DNA from: a virus
Taxonomy: Duplodnaviria; Heunggongvirae; Uroviricota; Caudoviricetes
IMG/VR virus record: IMGVR_UViG_2529292735_000026
Location: 1-10,386 of that record
Direction: 5' to 3' (one strand)
DNA: 10,386 nt
The notes under the pieces are model-generated. The model saw only the letters and a program-made list of their open reading frames with translations. It was not told the origin of the DNA and searched no databases. The translations under genes and the position numbers were made by a program. Below, in pieces: positions 400-10,386 of the stretch (position 1 is its first letter; every line of letters begins with the position of its first letter).

Positions 400-762
400 G
401 ATAATATCATCCGCTATGTGGAAAAGGATGTGACAGCTATCAGACCGGATGGATTAAGTGTTGTTGAAGTGGCGGATATTACTGCTAACCGACGGGCGGA
501 CATTTCAGGGAACTGGATGTTTAAGGATGGCACAGTGATCAAACGAATTTATACGGCAGAGGAATTGCAACTGCAGGCAGAAAACCGGAAAGCCAGACTT
601 CTTGCAGATGCTGAATCCGTGATTTTGCCGCTAGAGCGTGCTGTCAGGCTGAACATGGCAACAGAGGAGGAGCGCACACGGCTGGAGGCTTGGGAACGCT
701 ACAGCGTTGTGGTCAGTCGTGTGGATCCTGCAAATCCTGAATGGCCGGAAATGCCGCAATAA
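400..762 (+). pseudogene. Tail fibre assembly protein (P2 G-like), 3' remnant truncated by the IS66 insertion
   Basis: Frame is open from the IS junction with no ATG or RBS (only a GTG at 418); translation ends …[34 protein letters not shown], the conserved C-terminal region of phage Tfa proteins (P2 G, lambda Tfa, Mu U); about 120 codons where an intact G-like protein is about 175 aa. Confidence 0.7.
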
Positions 763-948
763 GTTGTATGAACTCTGGTGTGAGCTTACATATCTATGGC
801 ACAGAGTAAAGCCTAATCTGACAGTCCGCTCTGTGCCAGGAGCGGAAGTTGCCAAGAGAACTCTTGCAAAGGTATGATAACGTAGGTGCTAAATAATCAT
901 GAACCATAATAAATTAAAGGTTTTTAAGTTAACTCTATGGCGTTTCTT

Positions 949-978
949 TTGCATGATGATTTTTATTTATTATATAAA
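949..978 (+). promoter_or_regulatory. Putative sigma70-type promoter for the 447-aa cargo ORF (TTGCAT, 18-nt spacer, TATAAA)
   Basis: TTGCAT at 949-954 and TATAAA at 973-978 inside a very AT-rich stretch, about 65 nt upstream of ATG 1043; pattern match only. Confidence 0.35.
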
Positions 979-1042
979 GCTTAAATATACATAATATTTA
1001 GCTTCATTTTTTTAGGTATTTTAAAGATTTAGAGGAATGTGA

Positions 1043-2386
1043 ATGGCTACTTATGCTTCTTATTTACCAGAATCACAAATTATCACTTTGTGCAAGGATT
1101 TCCCAGCGTTTACTGATCCTGAAAAATTAGATGGATTCATTAATCCAGAACAGTTTGGCGTGTTTTTTCATGAGTGGATTCATTTTCTTCACAATATTTC
1201 CACAATTAATGGGTTTTCTATTTTTTGCACGCAAAACATCCTGTGGTCTAATTTTCGCTGGGCAATGGACAATCAGGATGTATGTCTTGGTTCAAATGAC
1301 ATGGATCCAGCACATATCGAATCAAACAAAAATTTTCTCAGTTACATTCGTTCCAATAGGAGTCTGCATAAATGTAACTTACCTTATTATGTAAAAGTAA
1401 ACGACTTGTATTTTGAGGATGCAATAATCCATGACATGGAGGTTGCTGACGGTAGTGTTATATGTACATCATTAATAAAGTGTAGAATTTCTCATTCTGA
1501 AAACAAATACGATCTAGATTTAGGCGTGCTTGAAATACTTGAATCCGCAGCTTTTATGCTTGAATGTAAGTGTATTAATGCGATGAATGGCTTCCCTCAA
1601 GAGGCACCCTTTTATCCGTATCATACTATCAAGGGCTTAGCAGCGAAAATTGCTCCGTCATTAAATGATGAAGATATTATTTGTTGTATGTTAGCTTCTT
1701 TGCAATCTAATAACCCTCCCCAAGTATTATTCAATCTACTACATAAATGTGAATTATTACATTCTGATTGTAGGTATGAACATCTAGTGGCGGAGGTGAA
1801 AAAACAATTAAGCGAACAAGATCAAATAATAAGCGAGTCACTTAATCAAATAATTCAAATGATTCCTGTTGATGAACCGATGGGAAACTTTATCAAGCTT
1901 ACTCTTAACAGAATAAGTAACAATTTGAACTATAGAAAGCAAAAACCGTTTTTTGAGTTAGATATAATAAAAAAAATAGCAGAAAAAACTGAGTTTATGA
2001 ATGAAGTAATACAGAAATTCGGTGGTTGCACTATCATCCAGGTAAGACATGGAGATGATAATGAACCACAGCGTGATATTATGTATGACTTTTGCTTACC
2101 TGAAAATAATGATTCAATTTTATTTGGTTCGAAAATGCTACGCGCTTGTTTTCACTTTATATTTATTCACTTTAAACTTTCTGGTGAAATCATGAAGACA
2201 GAAGAATTAAATATTTCGCCGCGTAATAAATGCCCATTTTATACTGTTTGCTGTGCATCAATTCGAGCTAATAATAGTAATATCTGCGCTGAATCCCCTT
2301 GGAAATCAATGTCTATTGATGACAACAAAGGTTGTTATTATGCAGCAGCGATTAAAGCTACTAACCCACCAGTTTTGCCGGATTAA
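1043..2386 (+). CDS. Hypothetical protein, 447 aa; AT-rich cargo gene in the G-FI (Z/fun-equivalent) slot; HExxH motif near the N-terminus, cysteine-rich; candidate phage-exclusion or defence protein
   Basis: Long uninterrupted ORF; RBS AGAGGAA at 1029-1035 about 7 nt before the ATG; sampled 60-nt stretches are about 23-37% G+C against about 60% in the adjacent sheath gene; followed by a hairpin and an intrinsic terminator; no competing ORF on either strand between 860 and 2640. Confidence 0.85.
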   Translation: MATYASYLPESQIITLCKDFPAFTDPEKLDGFINPEQFGVFFHEWIHFLHNISTINGFSIFCTQNILWSNFRWAMDNQDVCLGSNDMDPAHIESNKNFLSYIRSNRSLHKCNLPYYVKVNDLYFEDAIIHDMEVADGSVICTSLIKCRISHSENKYDLDLGVLEILESAAFMLECKCINAMNGFPQEAPFYPYHTIKGLAAKIAPSLNDEDIICCMLASLQSNNPPQVLFNLLHKCELLHSDCRYEHLVAEVKKQLSEQDQIISESLNQIIQMIPVDEPMGNFIKLTLNRISNNLNYRKQKPFFELDIIKKIAEKTEFMNEVIQKFGGCTIIQVRHGDDNEPQRDIMYDFCLPENNDSILFGSKMLRACFHFIFIHFKLSGEIMKTEELNISPRNKCPFYTVCCASIRANNSNICAESPWKSMSIDDNKGCYYAAAIKATNPPVLPD

Positions 2387-2520
2387 GAATAGTGTTCTAT
2401 CTGATAAATATAAAATATTTAAGGTCAGGTCTGCTTATCGCTCAAAGCAGACTGTCAGATTTGATAACGTTTGGGCTATGTAAACCGTCAGTTGGAAAAT
2501 GAGTGAGTGCAAGTCAGGAC

Positions 2521-2548
2521 AGGCGGGCGGATTGCCCGCCTTTTCTTT
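2521..2548 (+). terminator. Rho-independent terminator downstream of the cargo ORF
   Basis: Perfect 8-bp GC-rich stem aggcgggc (2521-2528) / gcccgcct (2534-2541), 5-nt loop, followed by TTTCTTT. Confidence 0.6.
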
Positions 2549-2549
2549 A

Positions 2550-2640
2550 TCTGTTGTTTCATCCACTGACCAGCCAGGTCAAATAGCGCCTCATGCTCTG
2601 CACAACAGAAAATAGTTGCACCCATTAACCACGGAGTTAA
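2550..2640 (+). promoter_or_regulatory. Putative Ogr-dependent late promoter (P_F equivalent) upstream of FI
   Basis: Positional analogy to P2 P_F. A TGT-N12-cCA element (2555-2572) is a one-mismatch match to the TGT-N12-ACA dyad I recall for P2 late promoters, centred about 80 nt upstream of the FI ATG; no convincing -10 hexamer identified. Confidence 0.3.
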
Positions 2641-2644
2641 ACGG

Positions 2645-3835
2645 ATGAGTGACTATCATCACGGCGTGCAGGTGCTGGAGATTAACGACGGCACACGCGT
2701 CATTTCCACCGTATCCACTGCCATTGTCGGCATGGTCTGCACGGCCAGCGATGCGGATGCGGAAACCTTCCCCCTCAATAAACCTGTGCTGATTACCAAT
2801 GTGCAGAGTGCAATTGCAAAGGCCGGTAAAAAAGGCACGCTGGCGGCATCGTTGCAGGCCATCGCTGACCAGTCAAAACCGGTCACCGTTGTCGTGCGCG
2901 TGGAAGACGGCACCGGTGATGACGAGGAAACGAAACTCGCGCAGACCGTTTCTAATATTATCGGCACCACTGACGAAAACGGTCAGTACACCGGACTGAA
3001 AGCCCTGCTGGCGGCGGAGTCGGTAACCGGTGTTAAACCGCGTATTCTTGGTGTGCCGGGGCTGGATACCAAAGAGGTGGCTGTTGCACTGGCATCAGTC
3101 TGTCAGAAGCTGCGCGCTTTCGGATATATCAGCGCATGGGGCTGTAAGACCATTTCCGAGGTGAAAGCCTACCGCCAGAATTTCAGCCAGCGTGAGCTGA
3201 TGGTCATCTGGCCGGATTTCCTCGCATGGGATACGGTCACCAGTACCACCGCCACCGCGCATGCCACCGCCCGTGCGCTGGGTCTGCGCGCTAAAATCGA
3301 CCAGGAGCAGGGCTGGCATAAAACGCTGTCCAACGTTGGGGTAAACGGTGTTACCGGCATCAGCGCATCTGTATTCTGGGATTTGCAGGAGTCCGGCACC
3401 GATGCTGACCTGCTTAACGAGTCAGGCGTCACTACGCTGATTCGCCGTGACGGTTTCCGCTTCTGGGGTAACCGTACCTGCTCTGATGACCCGCTGTTCC
3501 TCTTTGAAAACTACACCCGCACCGCGCAGGTGCTGGCCGACACGATGGCTGAGGCGCACATGTGGGCGGTGGACAAGCCCATCACCGCAACGCTGATTCG
3601 CGACATCGTTGACGGCATCAATGCCAAATTCCGTGAGCTGAAAACAAACGGCTATATCGTGGATGCGACCTGCTGGTTCAGCGAAGAATCCAACGATGCG
3701 GAAACCCTCAAGGCCGGAAAACTGTATATCGACTACGACTATACCCCGGTGCCTCCTCTCGAAAACCTGACCCTGCGCCAGCGTATTACTGATAAATACC
3801 TGGCAAGTCTGGTCACCTCGGTTAACAGCAATTAA
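2645..3835 (+). CDS. FI: Contractile tail sheath protein (P2 gpFI-like), 396 aa
   Basis: N-terminus MSDYHHGVQVLEINDGTRVI… and length match P2 FI as I recall it; high G+C; syntenic with the following tail genes. Confidence 0.93.
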   Translation: MSDYHHGVQVLEINDGTRVISTVSTAIVGMVCTASDADAETFPLNKPVLITNVQSAIAKAGKKGTLAASLQAIADQSKPVTVVVRVEDGTGDDEETKLAQTVSNIIGTTDENGQYTGLKALLAAESVTGVKPRILGVPGLDTKEVAVALASVCQKLRAFGYISAWGCKTISEVKAYRQNFSQRELMVIWPDFLAWDTVTSTTATAHATARALGLRAKIDQEQGWHKTLSNVGVNGVTGISASVFWDLQESGTDADLLNESGVTTLIRRDGFRFWGNRTCSDDPLFLFENYTRTAQVLADTMAEAHMWAVDKPITATLIRDIVDGINAKFRELKTNGYIVDATCWFSEESNDAETLKAGKLYIDYDYTPVPPLENLTLRQRITDKYLASLVTSVNSN

Positions 3836-3847
3836 GGAGCCTGACCG

Positions 3848-4366
3848 ATGGCAATGCCGCGCAAACTCAAGTTAATGAACGTCTTTCTGAACGGCTACAA
3901 CTATCAGGGCGTCGCGAAGTCCGTCACGCTGCCAAAACTGACCCGTAAGCTCGAAAACTATCGCGGTGCGGGGATGAACGGCAGCGCACCGGTAGACCTC
4001 GGCCTTGATGACGATGCGCTGTCAATGGAGTGGTCGCTCGGTGGCTTCCCGGATTCGGTTATCTGGGAGCTTTACGCCGCAACCGGTGTGGATGCCGTAC
4101 CGATTCGTTTTGCAGGCTCTTACCAGCGCGACGATACCGGCGAAACGGTGGCCGTCGAGGTGGTCATGCGTGGACGTCAGAAAGAAATCGACACCGGCGA
4201 GGGCAAACAGGGAGAAGACACCGAGTCGAAAATCTCCGTGGTCTGCACCTATTTCCGGCTGACGATGGACGGTAAGGAGCTGGTCGAAATCGACACCATC
4301 AACATGATTGAGAAGGTGAACGGCGTCGACCGGCTGGAGCAACACCGCCGCAATATCGGCCTGTGA
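3848..4366 (+). CDS. FII: Tail tube protein (P2 gpFII-like), 172 aa
   Basis: Sits immediately downstream of the sheath gene with RBS AAGGAG; size and position match P2 FII. Confidence 0.92.
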   Translation: MAMPRKLKLMNVFLNGYNYQGVAKSVTLPKLTRKLENYRGAGMNGSAPVDLGLDDDALSMEWSLGGFPDSVIWELYAATGVDAVPIRFAGSYQRDDTGETVAVEVVMRGRQKEIDTGEGKQGEDTESKISVVCTYFRLTMDGKELVEIDTINMIEKVNGVDRLEQHRRNIGL

Positions 4367-4422
4367 TTTTCATCCGGTCAGCCTGGCTGACCGGTTAACC
4401 CCGATTCAGAAGTGAGAAAACC

Positions 4423-4698
4423 ATGAACAAAGAAAACGTCATTACCCTGGACAATCCGGTCAAACGTGGTGAGCAGGTTATCGAACAGGTCACGCTGATG
4501 AAACCCAATGCCGGGACGCTACGCGGTGTCAGTCTGGCTGCAGTCGCGAACTCCGAAGTCGATGCACTGATTAAAGTGCTGCCGCGCATGACGGCACCGA
4601 TGCTGACCGAGCAGGAAGTCGCCGCGCTGGAACTGCCTGACCTTGTGGCGCTGGCCGGTAAGGTGGTCGGTTTTTTGTCGCCGAACTCGGTGCAGTGA
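4423..4698 (+). CDS. E: Tail assembly chaperone gpE (P2 E-like), 91 aa
   Basis: Short ORF between the tube and tape-measure genes, the conserved position of tail chaperone genes; contains the slippery heptamer T_TTT_TTG at 4671-4677 near its 3' end. Confidence 0.9.
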   Translation: MNKENVITLDNPVKRGEQVIEQVTLMKPNAGTLRGVSLAAVANSEVDALIKVLPRMTAPMLTEQEVAALELPDLVALAGKVVGFLSPNSVQ

Positions 4699-4850
4699 CG
4701 TTTCCGAAAAATCTCTCGGTCGATGACCTGATGGCGGATGTGGCAGTGATATTTCACTGGCCGCCATCAGAACTGTATCCCATGAGCCTGACCGAACTCA
4801 TCACATGGCGCGAAAAGGCGCTCCGGCGAAGCGGAAACACGAATGAGTAA
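4423..4850 (+). CDS. E': gpE+E' fusion made by programmed -1 ribosomal frameshift at 4671-4677 (about 142 aa)
   Basis: The -1 frame is open from the slippery site T_TTT_TTG to a TAA at 4848-4850, overlapping the T start codon at 4843; mirrors the E/E' arrangement described for P2 and the G/GT chaperone of lambda. Confidence 0.75.
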
Positions 4851-7290
4851 CAATGTAAAATTACAGGTATTGCTCAGGGCTGTTGACCAGGCATCCCGCC
4901 CGTTTAAATCCATCCGCACAGCGAGCAAGTCGCTGTCGGGGGATATCCGGGAAACACAAAAATCACTGCGCGAGCTGAACGGTCACGCATCCCGTATTGA
5001 GGGATTTCGCAAGACCAGTGCGCAGCTCGCCGTGACTGGTCATGCACTTGAAAAGGCACGGCAGGAAGCCGAAGCCCTTGCCACACAGTTTAAAAACACC
5101 GAACGTCCGACCCGTGCTCAGGCGAAAGTGCTGGAATCCGCAAAGCGAGCGGCGGAGGACTTACAGGCGAAATATAACCGCCTGACGGATTCCGTTAAAC
5201 GCCAGCAGCGGGAACTGGCCGCTGTGGGAATTAATACCCGCAATCTTGCACATGATGAGCAGGGACTGAAAAACCGTATCAGTGAAACCACCGCACAGCT
5301 TAACCGGCAGCGTGACGCGCTGGCGCGTGTCAGTGCGCAACAGGCAAAACTTAACGCAGTAAAACAGCGCTATCAGGCAGGAAAGGAGCTGGCCGGAAAT
5401 ATGGCCTCAGTGGGCGCTGCCGGTGTGGGGATTGCGGCGGCGGGAACGATGGCCGGTGTTAAGCTGCTGATGCCCGGTTATGAATTTGCGCAGAAAAACT
5501 CAGAATTACAGGCCGTGCTCGGTGTGGCAAAAGACTCCGCCGAAATGGCCGCGCTACGCAAGCAGGCGCGCCAGCTCGGCGACAATACCGCCGCCTCGGC
5601 GGATGATGCGGCCGGTGCACAGATAATCATCGCGAAAGCGGGTGGGGATGTTGATGCCATTCAGGCGGCAACGCCGGTCACGCTGAATATGGCGCTGGCG
5701 AACCGTCGCACGATGGAAGAAAACGCCGCCCTGCTGATGGGGATGAAATCTGCCTTTCAGCTTTCAAACGATAAGGTTGCTCATATCGGGGATGTTCTCT
5801 CCATGACGATGAACAAAACCGCCGCCGATTTTGACGGTATGAGCGATGCGCTGACCTATGCCGCACCTGTGGCAAAAAATGCCGGTGTCAGCATTGAAGA
5901 AACCGCCGCAATGGTCGGGGCGCTGCATGATGCAAAAATCACAGGCTCAATGGCGGGGACGGGAAGCCGTGCCGTGTTAAGCCGCCTGCAGGCACCGACG
6001 GGAAAAGCATGGGATGCACTCAAAGAGCTTGGCGTGAAAACCTCAGACAGCAAGGGAAACACCCGGCCAATATTTACCATTCTGAAAGAAATGCAGGCCA
6101 GTTTTGAGAAAAACCGGCTCGGTACTGCCCAGCAGGCTGAATACATGAAAACTATTTTCGGGGAGGAGGCCAGCTCAGCCGCCGCCGTGCTGATGACCGC
6201 CGCCTCAACCGGAAAGCTGGACAAACTGACCGCTGCGTTTAAAGCCTCAAACGGGAAGACTGCCGAGCTGGTAAATATCATGCAGGACAACCTCGGCGGT
6301 GACTTTAAGGAGTTTCAGTCCGCTTATGAGGCGGTGGGGACAGACCTGTTTGACCAGCAGGAAGGCGCACTGCGCAAGCTCACACAGACGGCCACAAAGT
6401 ATGTGTTAAAACTCGACGGCTGGATCCAGAAAAACAAATCACTGGCGTCAACCATTGGCATCATTGCCGGTGGCGCGCTGGCGCTTATTGGCATCATCGG
6501 TGCAATTGGTCTTGTAGCCTGGCCGGTTATCACTGGCATCAATGCTATCATCGCGGCAGCAGGCGCAATGGGGGCAATCTTCACGACGGTTGGCAGTGCT
6601 GTTATGACGGCCATCGGGGCGATTAGCTGGCCGGTTGTGGCCGTGGTGGCCGCCATTGTCGCCGGGGCGTTGCTTATCCGTAAATACTGGGAGCCTGTCA
6701 GCGCATTCTTTGGCGGTGTGGTGGAAGGGCTGAAAGCGGCATTTGCGCCGGTGGGGGAACTGTTCACGCCACTTAAGCCGCTGTTTGACTGGCTGGGTGA
6801 AAAGTTACAGGCCGCGTGGCAGTGGTTTAAAAACCTGATTGCCCCGGTTAAAGCCACCCAGGACACCCTGAACCGTTGCCGTGACACGGGCGTCATGTTC
6901 GGGCAGGCACTGGCTGACGCGCTGATGCTGCCGCTTAATGCGTTCAACAAACTGCGCGGCGGTATTGACTGGGTACTGGAAAAACTCGGCGTCATCAACA
7001 AAGAGTCAGGCACGCTTGACCAGACTGCCGCCAGAACTCATGCCGCCACGTATGGCACCGGTGGTTATATTCCGGCGACCAGCTCTTATGCTGGCTATCA
7101 GGCTTATCAGCCAGTTACGGCACCGGCTGGCCGCTCTTATGTGGACCAGAGTAAAAACGAATATCACATCAACCTGACGGGCGGTACTGCGCAGGGGACA
7201 CAGCTCGACCGCCAGTTACAGGATGCGCTCGAAAAATACGAGCGGGATAAACGTGCGCGCGCCCGTGCCAGCATGATGCATGACGGTTAA
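4843..7290 (+). CDS. T: Tail tape measure protein (P2 gpT-like), 815 aa
   Basis: Long ORF with a coiled-coil-like N-terminal part, a Gly/Ala-rich hydrophobic segment (…IGIIAGGALALIGIIGAIGLVAWPVITGINAIIAAAGAMGAIF…) and position after E/E'. Confidence 0.93.
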   Translation: MSNNVKLQVLLRAVDQASRPFKSIRTASKSLSGDIRETQKSLRELNGHASRIEGFRKTSAQLAVTGHALEKARQEAEALATQFKNTERPTRAQAKVLESAKRAAEDLQAKYNRLTDSVKRQQRELAAVGINTRNLAHDEQGLKNRISETTAQLNRQRDALARVSAQQAKLNAVKQRYQAGKELAGNMASVGAAGVGIAAAGTMAGVKLLMPGYEFAQKNSELQAVLGVAKDSAEMAALRKQARQLGDNTAASADDAAGAQIIIAKAGGDVDAIQAATPVTLNMALANRRTMEENAALLMGMKSAFQLSNDKVAHIGDVLSMTMNKTAADFDGMSDALTYAAPVAKNAGVSIEETAAMVGALHDAKITGSMAGTGSRAVLSRLQAPTGKAWDALKELGVKTSDSKGNTRPIFTILKEMQASFEKNRLGTAQQAEYMKTIFGEEASSAAAVLMTAASTGKLDKLTAAFKASNGKTAELVNIMQDNLGGDFKEFQSAYEAVGTDLFDQQEGALRKLTQTATKYVLKLDGWIQKNKSLASTIGIIAGGALALIGIIGAIGLVAWPVITGINAIIAAAGAMGAIFTTVGSAVMTAIGAISWPVVAVVAAIVAGALLIRKYWEPVSAFFGGVVEGLKAAFAPVGELFTPLKPLFDWLGEKLQAAWQWFKNLIAPVKATQDTLNRCRDTGVMFGQALADALMLPLNAFNKLRGGIDWVLEKLGVINKESGTLDQTAARTHAATYGTGGYIPATSSYAGYQAYQPVTAPAGRSYVDQSKNEYHINLTGGTAQGTQLDRQLQDALEKYERDKRARARASMMHDG

Positions 7291-7304
7291 GGAGGTGACG
7301 AAAA

Positions 7305-7784
7305 ATGATGCTCGCGTTAGGTATGTTTGTTTTTATGCGCCAGACGCTGCCACACCAGACCATGCAGCGTGAATCAGATTATCGCTGGCCGTCAAATTCC
7401 TGTATCGGTAAACGGGATGCCTTTCAGTTTCTCGGTGTGGGTGAGGAAAACATCACGCTTGCCGGTGTGCTTTATCCTGAACTGACCGGCGGGAAGCTGA
7501 CGATGACCACGCTCAGGCTGATGGCAGAGGAAGGCCGGGCGTGGCCGTTGCTGGATGGCACCGGCATGATTTACGGCATGTATGTCATCAGCAGGGTGAG
7601 TGAAACAGGGAGTATTTTCTTTGCAGACGGCACACCCCGGAAAATTGATTTTACGCTGTCGCTCACCCGCGTTGATGAATCACTGGCCGCGCTTTATGGC
7701 GATATCGGTAAACAGGCGGAATCGCTCATCGGTAAGGCTGGCAGTATGGCGACTAAATTCACGGGTATGACGGGGGCGGGATAA
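7305..7784 (+). CDS. U: Tail protein gpU (P2 U-like), 159 aa
   Basis: RBS AAGGAGG upstream; syntenic position between T and D; stop overlaps the D start (ATAATG). Confidence 0.9.
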   Translation: MMLALGMFVFMRQTLPHQTMQRESDYRWPSNSCIGKRDAFQFLGVGEENITLAGVLYPELTGGKLTMTTLRLMAEEGRAWPLLDGTGMIYGMYVISRVSETGSIFFADGTPRKIDFTLSLTRVDESLAALYGDIGKQAESLIGKAGSMATKFTGMTGAG

Positions 7785-8947
7785 TGCTGGATGCACTGAC
7801 ATTTGATGCAGGCAGTACGCTGACGCCGGATTACATGCTGATGCTCGACAGCAGGGATATTACCGGCAATATCAGCGACCGTCTGATGAGTATGACCCTG
7901 ACGGATAACCGGGGTTTTGAGGCTGACCAGCTTGATATTGAACTGAACGATGCCGACGGGCAGGTCGGGCTGCCGGTTCGTGGCGCTGTCCTGACGGTGT
8001 ATATCGGCTGGAAAGGTTTTGCCCTGGTATGCAAAGGGAAATTCACCGTTGATGAGGTTGAACACCGGGGCGCGCCGGATGTGGTCACCATCCGCGCCCG
8101 GAGTGCAGATTTCCGCGGGACGCTCAATTCCCGCCGTGAAGGTTCCTGGCATGACACCACGCTCGGTGCGATTGTTGAGGCGATAGCCTCCCGTAACAGG
8201 CTGGAAGCCAGTGTCGCTCCGTCACTGGCCGGAATTAAAATCCCGCACATCGACCAGTCGCAGGAGTCTGATGCGAAATTCCTGACCCGTCTTGCAGAAC
8301 GCAACGGCGGTGAGGTGTCGGTAAAAATGGGAAAATTGTTGTTTCTCAAAGCGGGGCAGGGGGTGACGGCCAGCGGTAAGAAAATCCCGCAGGTCACCAT
8401 CACCCGCAGCGACGGCGACCGTCATCATTTTGCGATTGCTGACCGTGGAGCCTACACCGGCGTAACGGCAAAGTGGTTACACACCAAAGACCCGAAGCCG
8501 CAAAAGCAGAAGGTAAAACTGAAACGCAAAAAGAAAGAAAAACACCTGCGCGCACTGGAGCACCCGAAAGCGAAACCGGTCAGGCAGAAGATAGCGCCCA
8601 AAGTGCCGGAAGCGCGCGAAGGTGAATACATGGCCGGTGAGGCTGATAACGTTTTTGCCCTGACCACGGTATATGCCACGAAAGCACAGGCCATGCGCGC
8701 CGCTCAGGCGAAGTGGGACAAACTGCAACGGGGCGTTGCGGAGTTCTCCATCAGCCTTGCCACTGGTCGGGCTGATATTTACACGGAAACGCCGGTCAGA
8801 GTGTCAGGCTTTAAGCGCGTCATAGACGAGCAGGACTGGACAATCACTAAGGTGACACATTTTCTGAATAATAGCGGCTTCACGACGTCCTTGGAGCTTG
8901 AGGTCAGGCTTTCTGATGTGGAGTACGAAACAGAAGATGATGAGTGA
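7784..8947 (+). CDS. D: Tail protein gpD (P2 D-like), 387 aa
   Basis: Translationally coupled to U; size and position match P2 D; contains a Lys-rich segment (…KPQKQKVKLKRKKKEKH…). Confidence 0.9.
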   Translation: MLDALTFDAGSTLTPDYMLMLDSRDITGNISDRLMSMTLTDNRGFEADQLDIELNDADGQVGLPVRGAVLTVYIGWKGFALVCKGKFTVDEVEHRGAPDVVTIRARSADFRGTLNSRREGSWHDTTLGAIVEAIASRNRLEASVAPSLAGIKIPHIDQSQESDAKFLTRLAERNGGEVSVKMGKLLFLKAGQGVTASGKKIPQVTITRSDGDRHHFAIADRGAYTGVTAKWLHTKDPKPQKQKVKLKRKKKEKHLRALEHPKAKPVRQKIAPKVPEAREGEYMAGEADNVFALTTVYATKAQAMRAAQAKWDKLQRGVAEFSISLATGRADIYTETPVRVSGFKRVIDEQDWTITKVTHFLNNSGFTTSLELEVRLSDVEYETEDDE

Positions 8948-9028
8948 TGTTTTTATTTTATCTATTTGTTTTATAAGGATAAATTAACTAGAATGGCACT
9001 ATCAACAAAACCGGAAGAGGTGCTCGCG

Positions 9029-9247
9029 ATGTTTCATTGTCCTTTATGCCAGCATGCCGCACATGCGCGTACAAGCCGCTATATCACTGACACGACAAAA
9101 GAGCGTTATCACCAGTGTCAGAACGTGAATTGCAGCGCCACGTTCATCACCTATGAGTCGGTACAGAGATACATCGTGAAGCCGGGAGAAGTCCACGCCG
9201 TAAGGCCGCACCCGTTGCCGTCAGGGCAGCAAATTATGTGGATGTGA
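9029..9247 (+). CDS. ogr: Late transcription activator Ogr (zinc-finger), 72 aa
   Basis: Translation MFHCPLCQHAAHARTSRYITDTTKERYHQCQNVNCSATFITYESVQRYIVKPGEVHAVRPHPLPSGQQIMWM matches P2 Ogr as I recall it, with the C-x2-C…C-x4-C zinc finger; ATG 9029 chosen over the upstream TTG (8966) and ATG (8993) because of the GAGG RBS spacing and the canonical 72-aa length. Confidence 0.9.
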   Translation: MFHCPLCQHAAHARTSRYITDTTKERYHQCQNVNCSATFITYESVQRYIVKPGEVHAVRPHPLPSGQQIMWM

Positions 9248-9251
9248 TCAC

Positions 9252-9285
9252 AAAAATAGCCCCTCAGTTGAGGGGCTTTATTTAT
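9252..9285 (+). terminator. Rho-independent terminator after ogr (end of the late/tail transcription unit)
   Basis: 9-bp stem agcccctca (9258-9266) / tgaggggct (9269-9277) with a 2-nt loop, flanked by an A-run upstream and TTATTTAT downstream. Confidence 0.6.
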
Positions 9286-9291
9286 GGTCGA

Positions 9292-9320
9292 TGTGGACGC
9301 TATGTGGACAGCGGTTGACA
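9292..9320 (+). other. Putative integrase arm-type binding sites in attR (direct repeats TGTGGAC-G, TGTGGACA, GTTGACA)
   Basis: Three direct repeats at 9292, 9303 and 9314 with roughly one helical turn spacing; TGTGGACA is, to my recollection, the arm-site consensus of P2 integrase; located between ogr and host DNA where the attR arm is expected. Confidence 0.5.
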
Positions 9321-9375
9321 TAAATCCATTTATATCATCAGGTTAGGTGCTTTTTTGTGACACCATCCCTGTCTT

Positions 9376-9403
9376 CCCCCACATGATGTGGGGGTTTTTT
9401 TTA
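9376..9403 (+). terminator. Strong rho-independent terminator; probably host-derived (possibly the 3' end of the cpxP/CpxQ transcript) or part of the att core region
   Basis: GC-rich stem cccccaca / tgtggggg around a short loop, followed by a T8 run (9395-9402). Confidence 0.65.
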
Positions 9404-9429
9404 TCCTCAATTTGCCTGCTGCTTAATGC

Positions 9430-9456
9430 ATTGCAGATGATTTGCTTCCGTTATAC
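9430..9456 (+). promoter_or_regulatory. Possible fieF promoter (TTGCAG, 15-nt spacer, TATACT)
   Basis: Hexamer match only; spacer is short; about 30 nt upstream of the fieF ATG. Confidence 0.25.
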
Positions 9457-9483
9457 TAGCGTCAGTTGATAGCGGGAGTATTT

Positions 9484-10386
9484 ATGAATCAATCTTATGG
9501 ACGGCTGGTCAGTCGGGCGGCGATTGCTGCGACGGCGATGGCTTCGTTGCTATTGCTGATTAAAATTTTTGCATGGTGGTATACCGGGTCGGTGAGTATT
9601 CTCGCCGCGCTGGTGGATTCGCTGGTGGATATCGGCGCGTCGTTGACGAATTTACTGGTGGTGCGATATTCCCTGCAACCTGCCGACGATAATCACTCGT
9701 TTGGTCACGGTAAAGCAGAGTCCCTCGCGGCGCTGGCGCAAAGTATGTTTATCTCCGGTTCGGCACTATTCCTGTTTTTGACGGGTATTCAACATCTGAT
9801 ATCTCCAACACCGATGACAGATCCAGGCGTCGGGGTTATCGTGACAATTGTGGCGCTAATTTGTACGATTATCCTTGTCTCGTTTCAGCGTTGGGTGGTG
9901 CGCCGGACGCAAAGCCAGGCGGTGCGGGCTGATATGCTACATTACCAGTCTGATGTTATGATGAACGGCGCAATTCTGCTGGCGCTGGGGTTGTCCTGGT
10001 ACGGCTGGCATCGCGCCGATGCTCTGTTTGCATTGGGAATCGGCATCTATATTTTATATAGCGCGTTACGCATGGGATATGAGGCGGTACAGTCATTACT
10101 GGATCGCGCATTGCCTGATGAGGAACGGCAAGAAATTATTGATATCGTGACTTCCTGGCCGGGTGTTAGCGGCGCTCACGATCTTCGCACGCGGCAGTCA
10201 GGGCCGACCCGCTTTATTCAGATTCATTTGGAAATGGAAGACTCTCTGCCTTTGGTTCAGGCACATATGGTGGCGGATCAGGTAGAGCAGGCTATTTTAC
10301 GGCGTTTTCCGGGATCGGATGTGATTATCCATCAGGACCCCTGTTCCGTCGTACCCAGGGAGGGTAAACGGTCTATGCTTTCATAA
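9484..10386 (+). CDS. fieF: Cation diffusion facilitator family ferrous-iron/zinc efflux transporter FieF (YiiP), 300 aa
   Basis: Translation [49 protein letters not shown]… matches E. coli FieF/YiiP as I recall it; RBS GGGAG 5-6 nt upstream of ATG 9484; multiple TM helices followed by a cytoplasmic C-terminal domain; stop TAA at window end. Confidence 0.93.

Follow-up and report, generated by a model that had tools for sequence, protein, structure and literature searches.

The window analysed here is the whole stretch of 10,386 nucleotides, and within it positions 400-10386 are 99.9% identical to a P2-like prophage of E. coli APEC O2-211. It contains a cargo open reading frame whose product corresponds to WP_000257039.1, annotated 'hypothetical protein', and in APEC O2-211 the gene for this protein is flanked by the genes for tail-fibre assembly and for the sheath. 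The features of the locus are as follows.

847..2420, no strand assigned: variable cargo segment in the P2 G/FI (fun(Z)) hotspot, delimited by breaks in homology at 846-852 (left) and 2417-2421 (right)
849..878, + strand: sigma-70-like promoter match TTGCCA-18-TATGAT, 10/12, where the variable segment begins on its left side; it is a match to the consensus only, such sites being no more numerous here than in shuffles
1031-1036, + strand: Shine-Dalgarno sequence AGAGGA, preceding the cargo ATG at 1043
1043..2386, + strand: cargo open reading frame, 447 aa; predicted cytoplasmic, solitary, PHROG 15354 family
1169..1183, + strand: HExxH motif, H43 E44 W45 I46 H47, codons CAT GAG TGG ATT CAT, on helix 35-53
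1190..1195, + strand: H50 (CAC, 1190-1192) and N51, on the same helix face as H43/H47
2521..2541, + strand: intrinsic terminator (9-bp stem, 7 GC pairs, followed by a run of T); it belongs to the conserved right flank and lies after the cargo open reading frame, ahead of the late F-operon promoter region and FI (which starts at 2645)

Other P2-like prophages are homologous up to 846-852 and again from 2417-2421, so the segment that is exchanged is about 1.57 kb in length, with the cargo open reading frame alone inside. In other prophages the same slot is occupied by a 598-aa protein with an HNH motif, or by two small open reading frames. The GC content is 0.28-0.36 inside the segment (0.31-0.36 for the cargo gene) versus 0.50-0.59 in the flanks, and the cargo gene is present in only 13 of 5,426 complete E. 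coli genomes, whereas its flanks are common to about 1,000. The status of cargo given to this gene in a preliminary description of the sequence thus holds, on the basis of its low GC content and its variable slot in a P2-like prophage between G and FI.

The corresponding slot of P2 is taken by fun(Z), a lysogenic-conversion gene that is not essential and that blocks T5. It is located immediately upstream of pF (the promoter) and FI, so the genomic slots of the two genes are identical. A passage of Vassallo et al. (2022) describes three new defence systems yielded by the hotspot, and that passage, together with the same position of P2 fun(Z), leads us to take the cargo slot to be that defence hotspot. 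Fun(Z) and the cargo protein are not homologous, and fun(Z) has the opposite orientation. A tblastn search with the cargo protein against 50,697 phage records, P2 included, found no match, and we therefore regard the two as unrelated.

The strong terminator at 2521-2541 precedes the pF region, and thus the cargo gene is insulated from the late tail operon. The segment 2521-2644 comprises the terminator and then a conserved region, whose counterpart in P2 contains the binding site of the Ogr activator and, upstream of FI, the late promoter pF. No RNA family was found in an Rfam scan of the window. Related hairpin-like repeats bracket the cargo segment at 815-846 and 2430-2461. The left copy reads AATCTGACAG-TCCGC... 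and the right copy ...AGCAGA-CTGTCAGATT; these are 32 nt long and 78% complementary, and one other prophage (L018) has a complete palindrome as its left copy. A direct repeat of 27 nt, with TGATAACGT in it, occurs at 870-896 and 2457-2483. Since these repeats lie at or just outside the homology breakpoints between P2-like prophages, they may be a recombination substrate for cargo swapping.

Several further features of the prophage can be placed. The C-terminal 122 codons of a transposase open reading frame, which we take to be IS66-family-like, occupy positions 1-369 and are followed by the end of the element. Homology to APEC O2-211 starts at base 400, inside the tail-fibre assembly gene (165 nt into 528 nt), from which it follows that an insertion sequence has truncated gene G here and has probably left the prophage defective, with the cargo gene intact. 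The open reading frames at 4423-4698 and 4695-4850 correspond to the P2 E and E+E' tail assembly chaperones produced by -1 frameshifting, according to the P2 and APEC annotation. Within 8966-10386, the prophage ends just after ogr (about 9029-9247) and the host fieF gene starts at about 9484, so that attR must lie within 9248-9483.

The cargo protein contains the peptide FGVFFHEWIHFLHNIST (translation of 1043-2386). Reading of the codons agrees with the earlier report of this peptide and of an HExxH motif at 1169-1183 (H43-E44-W45-I46-H47), with H50 following. Given the length of the protein and its composition (14 His, 29 Glu), the expected number of HExxH motifs is 0.028, corresponding to a chance occurrence in ~2.7% of such proteins, and 2.6% of 200,000 shuffles of the protein contained one. 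An earlier estimate of a percent-level chance was therefore right, and by itself the motif proves nothing. No transmembrane segment or signal peptide was found in the protein (the maximum Kyte-Doolittle value over 19 residues is 1.37), and since it is in addition Cys-rich (20 Cys), it is predicted to be cytoplasmic.

The motif was placed in the context of its family. A homolog search over 5.8 billion proteins gave 36 homologs with 24-100% identity, from Escherichia, Sodalis, Serratia, Enterobacter, Aeromonas, Rheinheimera and metagenomes, every one of which is unnamed or 'hypothetical'. When 1.84 billion cluster representatives (50% identity clusters) were scanned with HMMER, the family comprised 1,037 clusters at E <= 1e-3, and 283 at E <= 1e-30. 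Among the 150 matches listed, nearly all the full-length ones are 440-540 aa in length and align from end to end. PHROG 15354 matches the cargo protein over its full length (E = 1.8e-274) and is the same family, as is PHROG 36473 for the C-terminal part; the annotation is 'unknown function'. In the literature searched, the DefensePredictor paper included, we found no paper that names accession WP_000257039.1 or describes such an HExxH anti-phage protein.

H43, E44 and H47 are invariant in 26 homologs, with identity down to 22%. In an alignment of 163 full-length members taken from the 1,037 clusters, with a mean column identity of about 20%, H43 and E44 are each present in 163/163 and H47 in 162/163. 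Complete conservation is found for H43, E44, Y193, R298, C397, C403, C415 and C431, while H47, N51, E167, P192, P419 and W420 are 99% conserved and H376 97%. Position 45 is aromatic in all of the family sequences, and the positions of E174 and E305 are Glu or Asp in 96% and 99%, respectively. Only two family sequences lack H47, one with H47Y (P0105) and the other with H47R in a truncated protein (P0116) that looks like a pseudogene. A homolog from Odoribacter (Bacteroidota) retains HEWIH as well as the Glu, the Arg and the P-Y motif.

Conservation across so divergent a family rules out a chance match for the HExxH motif of the cargo protein, as judged from the alignment. In zincins the Glu of HExxH is the catalytic base and not a metal ligand. 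E44 is as invariant as both His residues, and the pattern therefore points to catalysis over a structural site. The further histidine at position 50, which had also been remarked upon, is not a conserved ligand; this position is variable, with His in 72% and Gln in 18% across the family alignment, and H50 as the third ligand of an HExxHxxH site is rejected.

We built an AlphaFold2 model of the cargo protein with the 26-sequence alignment. It forms a single body and is confident throughout, with a mean pLDDT of 92.1 and a pTM of 0.92. Its elements, in order along the chain, are listed here.

Residues 5-16: short N-terminal hairpin
Residues 35-53: helix with HExxH, H50 and N51, the motif lying mid-helix
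Residues 55-72 and 89-106: helices
Residues 123-160: five-strand sheet
Residues 162-180: helix with E164, E167 and E174
After helix 162-180: P192-Y193 loop
Residues 195-326: seven-helix domain, with R298 at the end of helix 279-300
Between the seven-helix domain and helix 357-376: small beta element with D345
Residues 357-376: helix ending in H376
C-terminal region: short helices and the four invariant Cys

The conserved residues outside the motif are encoded at the following positions.

1541..1543, + strand: E167, candidate third metal ligand; 162/163, on helix 162-180, invariant in a 129-sequence set
1562-1564, + strand: E174, 96% Glu/Asp, on the same helix face as E167
1619..1621, + strand: Y193 of the P192-Y193 motif, 100% conserved; candidate transition-state stabiliser by analogy
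1934..1936, + strand: R298, 100% conserved; it lies where helix 279-300 ends, ahead of the P302-F303-x-E305 motif
2168..2170, + strand: H376, 97% conserved, last residue of helix 357-376
2231..2335, + strand: Cys4 module with C397, C403, C415 and C431, all 100%; plus conserved P398, R408, P419 and W420

The preliminary description had proposed structure prediction as a check on whether the two motif histidines sit on a helix. They do so in the predicted model, with the motif in the middle of helix 35-53 at a pLDDT of 92, and an HExxH sequence with conserved His and Glu on a helix is the signature of a zincin. The same description noted that no third zinc ligand could be seen at a typical spacing. 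The Glu of gluzincins typically lies roughly 18-65 residues past the second His, and E167 of the cargo protein lies 120 residues after H47. The spacing is indeed atypical, which is why this candidate ligand was missed, yet E167 is near-invariant and its helix coevolves with that carrying HExxH.

This coevolution emerged from a mean-field direct-coupling analysis on the 163 sequences, with gap-rich columns removed and about 156 effective sequences. Among the 64 strongest long-range couplings, five connect helix 36-58 with helix 158-182, against an expectation of 0.43 (Poisson p = 8e-5); the pairs are G39-I178, F42-C177, F58-C177, F41-G161 and F42-L173. In addition W45, which lies between the two His residues, and S168, which adjoins E167, each couple with the 327-328 loop. 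This provides weak evidence that agrees with a location of E167 beside the HExxH site. On the invariance of E167 and the coevolution of the two helices, we regard it as the best candidate for the third metal ligand. A tyrosine stabilises the transition state in thermolysin, the M1 peptidases and the botulinum light chains, and by analogy with these Y193 is a candidate for that role.

At the C-terminal end of the protein the four cysteines have the spacing C-x5-C-x11-C-x15-C over residues 397-431, and all four are invariant in 163/163. No Pfam model matched this module when 103 members were scanned. The Cys4 module is presumed from its sequence to be a second metal site, either structural Zn or Fe-S.

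The cargo protein belongs to no described family of peptidases or of defence proteins. Pfam and NCBIfam scans of the protein gave 0 families, as did a scan against PADLOC-DB 2.0.0 at E <= 1. Scanning 103 family members singly against Pfam produced scattered noise, with one marginal match to Peptidase_M85 (E = 0.0097). Profile searches of the PDB, made with profiles of 26 and 129 sequences, brought up only coiled-coil noise located in the helical domain, and a second large-database search, with a profile of 103 sequences, yielded no further names, domain fusions or Pfam domains. Foldseek with the model found nothing significant in the PDB (best E 1.2) or BFVD. No significant profile match was obtained to any described peptidase family (M3, M4, M48, M78, M85, U49 and others). 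At the sequence level the motif shows all the properties expected of a catalytic zincin site. The suggestion that it is a zincin signature is thus upheld by the conservation of H43, E44 and H47, by their mid-helix location and by weak structural matches, which are enriched for peptidases with HExxH plus Glu, but it does not extend to membership of a described peptidase family.

Comparison with individual families is nevertheless instructive. The gluzincins thermolysin/pseudolysin (M4), the botulinum light chains (M27) and aminopeptidase N (M1) have no detectable sequence homology to the cargo protein. In addition to the longer spacing between the second His and the Glu, the cargo protein differs from gluzincins in having a five-strand sheet and two helices inserted between the HExxH and Glu helices, and it adds the seven-helix domain and the Cys4 module. 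The local motif resembles that of the M3 oligopeptidases (E. coli OpdA/PrlC, and the thimet oligopeptidase and neurolysin type), with FFHEWIHFLHNIST compared with LFHEFGHGLHHMLT, including the His at +3 after the second His, and both proteins are large, mostly helical and cytoplasmic. Membership of M3 is rejected, as hhalign with OpdA covers just 24 columns around the motif with a probability of 2%. The metzincin signature of HExxHxxGxxH and a Met-turn is likewise rejected, because the cargo sequence HEWIHFLHNIST lacks Gly at +3 and His at +6 after the second His.

The best functional analogy for the cargo protein is Lit (U49) of the E. coli cryptic prophage e14. This too is a prophage-borne, single-gene, cytoplasmic HExxH protein, and it is annotated 'cell death peptidase'. 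When the Gol peptide appears in the course of T4 infection, Lit cleaves EF-Tu and thereby aborts the infection. It differs from the cargo protein in having no sequence similarity to it, in its length of 297 aa compared with 447 aa, in lacking the Cys4 module, and in belonging to another prophage and locus. Membership of U49 is rejected, since hhalign gives E 0.41 with an alignment away from the motif.

We have also examined the genomic neighbourhoods of distant homologs, which are given one per line, with the label of the locus or protein.

Rheinheimera (P0027): Tn7 tnsABCDE cargo end
P0034: primase island with an OLD-type ATPase and UvrD helicase (Gabija-like) and a RES protein
Cupriavidus (L010): Shedu SduA and a 1,798-aa AAA/STAND-like protein
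Rhodoferax (L011): Wadjet JetC/JetD and pPIWI_RE
L008: TraC region of an ICE
Odoribacter (L015): AAA ATPase and S8 subtilase pair, RHS toxin
Paraburkholderia (L009): E2-E1-JAB fusion and AAA_15/21 ATPase
L007 and P0035: integrase islands, that of P0035 also with an NB-ARC STAND protein
P0025: type III CBASS with an HTH/M78 regulator pair
L024, 4906-5955: 28% identical homolog in another P2-like phage (IMG/VR contig), beside HTH regulator and DUF4062 genes
Aeromonas (P0017): unremarkable chromosomal context

In this qualitative survey of loci the distant homologs are recurrently found near defence systems or in mobile-element cargo slots, and qualitatively the neighbourhood pattern is that of a defence or conflict gene. 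There is no conserved partner gene, the upstream and downstream open reading frames being non-homologous across 11 loci. A two-gene system is rejected on this ground, and the family therefore works alone. The homolog in the other P2-like phage lies beyond the end of the tail module and not in the G/FI slot, and it is an independent capture of the cargo family by P2-like phages. Three metagenome contigs (L028, L029 and L030) carry an identical 487-aa homolog (P0164) with downstream neighbours that differ, and this suggests that it too lies at a variable locus in its organism. An anti-phage function had been raised as a hypothesis before this analysis. It gains from the context, namely the fun(Z) hotspot and the defence-island neighbours of distant homologs, and from this setting we infer phage exclusion itself.

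Taken together, the motif, its conservation and its helical setting lead us to a mechanism for the cargo protein. The HExxH/E167 site is very probably a functional metal centre, judging by its conservation. H43 and H47 would bind the catalytic metal, probably zinc, and E44 would act as the general base that activates water. E167, on a helix predicted to pack against the HExxH helix, would be the third ligand, giving chemistry of the gluzincin type. Y193, R298 and H376 probably line the cleft. The four invariant Cys residues would form a second metal site at the C-terminus, and the helical domain and Cys4 module might gate the active site or sense a trigger. We slightly favour a peptide bond as the predicted substrate.

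The cargo gene would be a self-contained moron that occupies the fun(Z) hotspot in a P2-like prophage and apparently has a promoter of its own. The enzyme would remain latent until infection and would then cut an essential host or phage protein, so that phage growth stops in the manner of Lit. The lysogen would thereby be protected from other phages by a single-gene system. We lean towards such an anti-phage role. The complete reading, that of a solitary cytoplasmic zincin-like metallohydrolase of a new family acting as a single-gene anti-phage protein with the catalysis, substrate and defence function proposed above, is necessarily more tentative, and we put it at somewhat below an even chance.

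Other explanations have to be considered. The site might be a true catalytic metal centre that acts on a non-peptide substrate, as a nuclease, a nucleotide or small-molecule hydrolase or an amidase, or as a carboxylate-bridged (ExxH-type) metalloenzyme; the protein would still take part in conflict between elements. We consider this unlikely, while giving it some weight.

It is rather improbable that the protein is a metalloprotease with no anti-phage role, serving as a lysogenic-conversion, fitness or virulence factor, or as an anti-defence or prophage-maintenance moron. The E. coli carriers of the gene are mostly avian-pathogenic, ETEC and STEC-type isolates, and HExxH proteases are common bacterial effectors (NleC/NleD type); moreover the marginal match of one family member to Peptidase_M85, and the ordinary chromosomal contexts of some homologs such as that in Aeromonas, would be in keeping with such a function. 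However, the absence of a signal peptide or transmembrane segment and the richness in Cys indicate a cytoplasmic protein, and no secretion system lies close by. The family occurs widely among environmental Beta- and Gammaproteobacteria, repeatedly beside defence systems and in mobile-element cargo slots, and the slot in this prophage is a recognised P2 defence hotspot.

Finally, a non-catalytic motif, forming a structural metal site or the helix-packing surface of a non-enzymatic sensor or scaffold (a pseudo-peptidase), would accord with the lack of matching enzyme families and with the loss of H47 in two members, but it is very improbable given that E44 is found in 163/163, that E167, Y193 and R298 are equally invariant, that a packing or structural site would tolerate Glu to Asp or Gln, or His to Cys, at such divergence, and that one of the two exceptions is truncated and pseudogene-like.

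Returning to the solitary anti-phage metallohydrolase, the kind of protein is a known one, an HExxH metallohydrolase carried as prophage defence cargo, and what is unusual is the arrangement of the core and the extra Cys4 site. It is possible, and we suggest it with due caution, that the family is a new zincin-like clan with a rearranged core (HExxH helix, two helices, five-strand sheet and Glu helix) joined to a helical domain and to an invariant Cys4 module (metal or redox), and at the same time a new single-gene anti-phage system across the Proteobacteria and reaching the Bacteroidota, with >1,000 clusters at 50% identity that have been missed by PADLOC, Pfam and NCBIfam.

To our knowledge few protease-based abortive-infection proteins are understood, Lit being the classic case. 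If our reading is true, a family of 1,037 clusters at 50% identity that is unnamed in annotation resources would become a testable single-gene immune protein, with clear targets for point mutation in H43, E44, H47, E167 and the four Cys residues. It would provide a second, unrelated solitary metalloprotease with which to ask what keeps a latent cytoplasmic protease in check, how infection triggers it and which target it cuts. It would also represent a new structural solution to the zincin catalytic site, and it would mean that the P2 fun(Z) hotspot still harbours uncatalogued systems.
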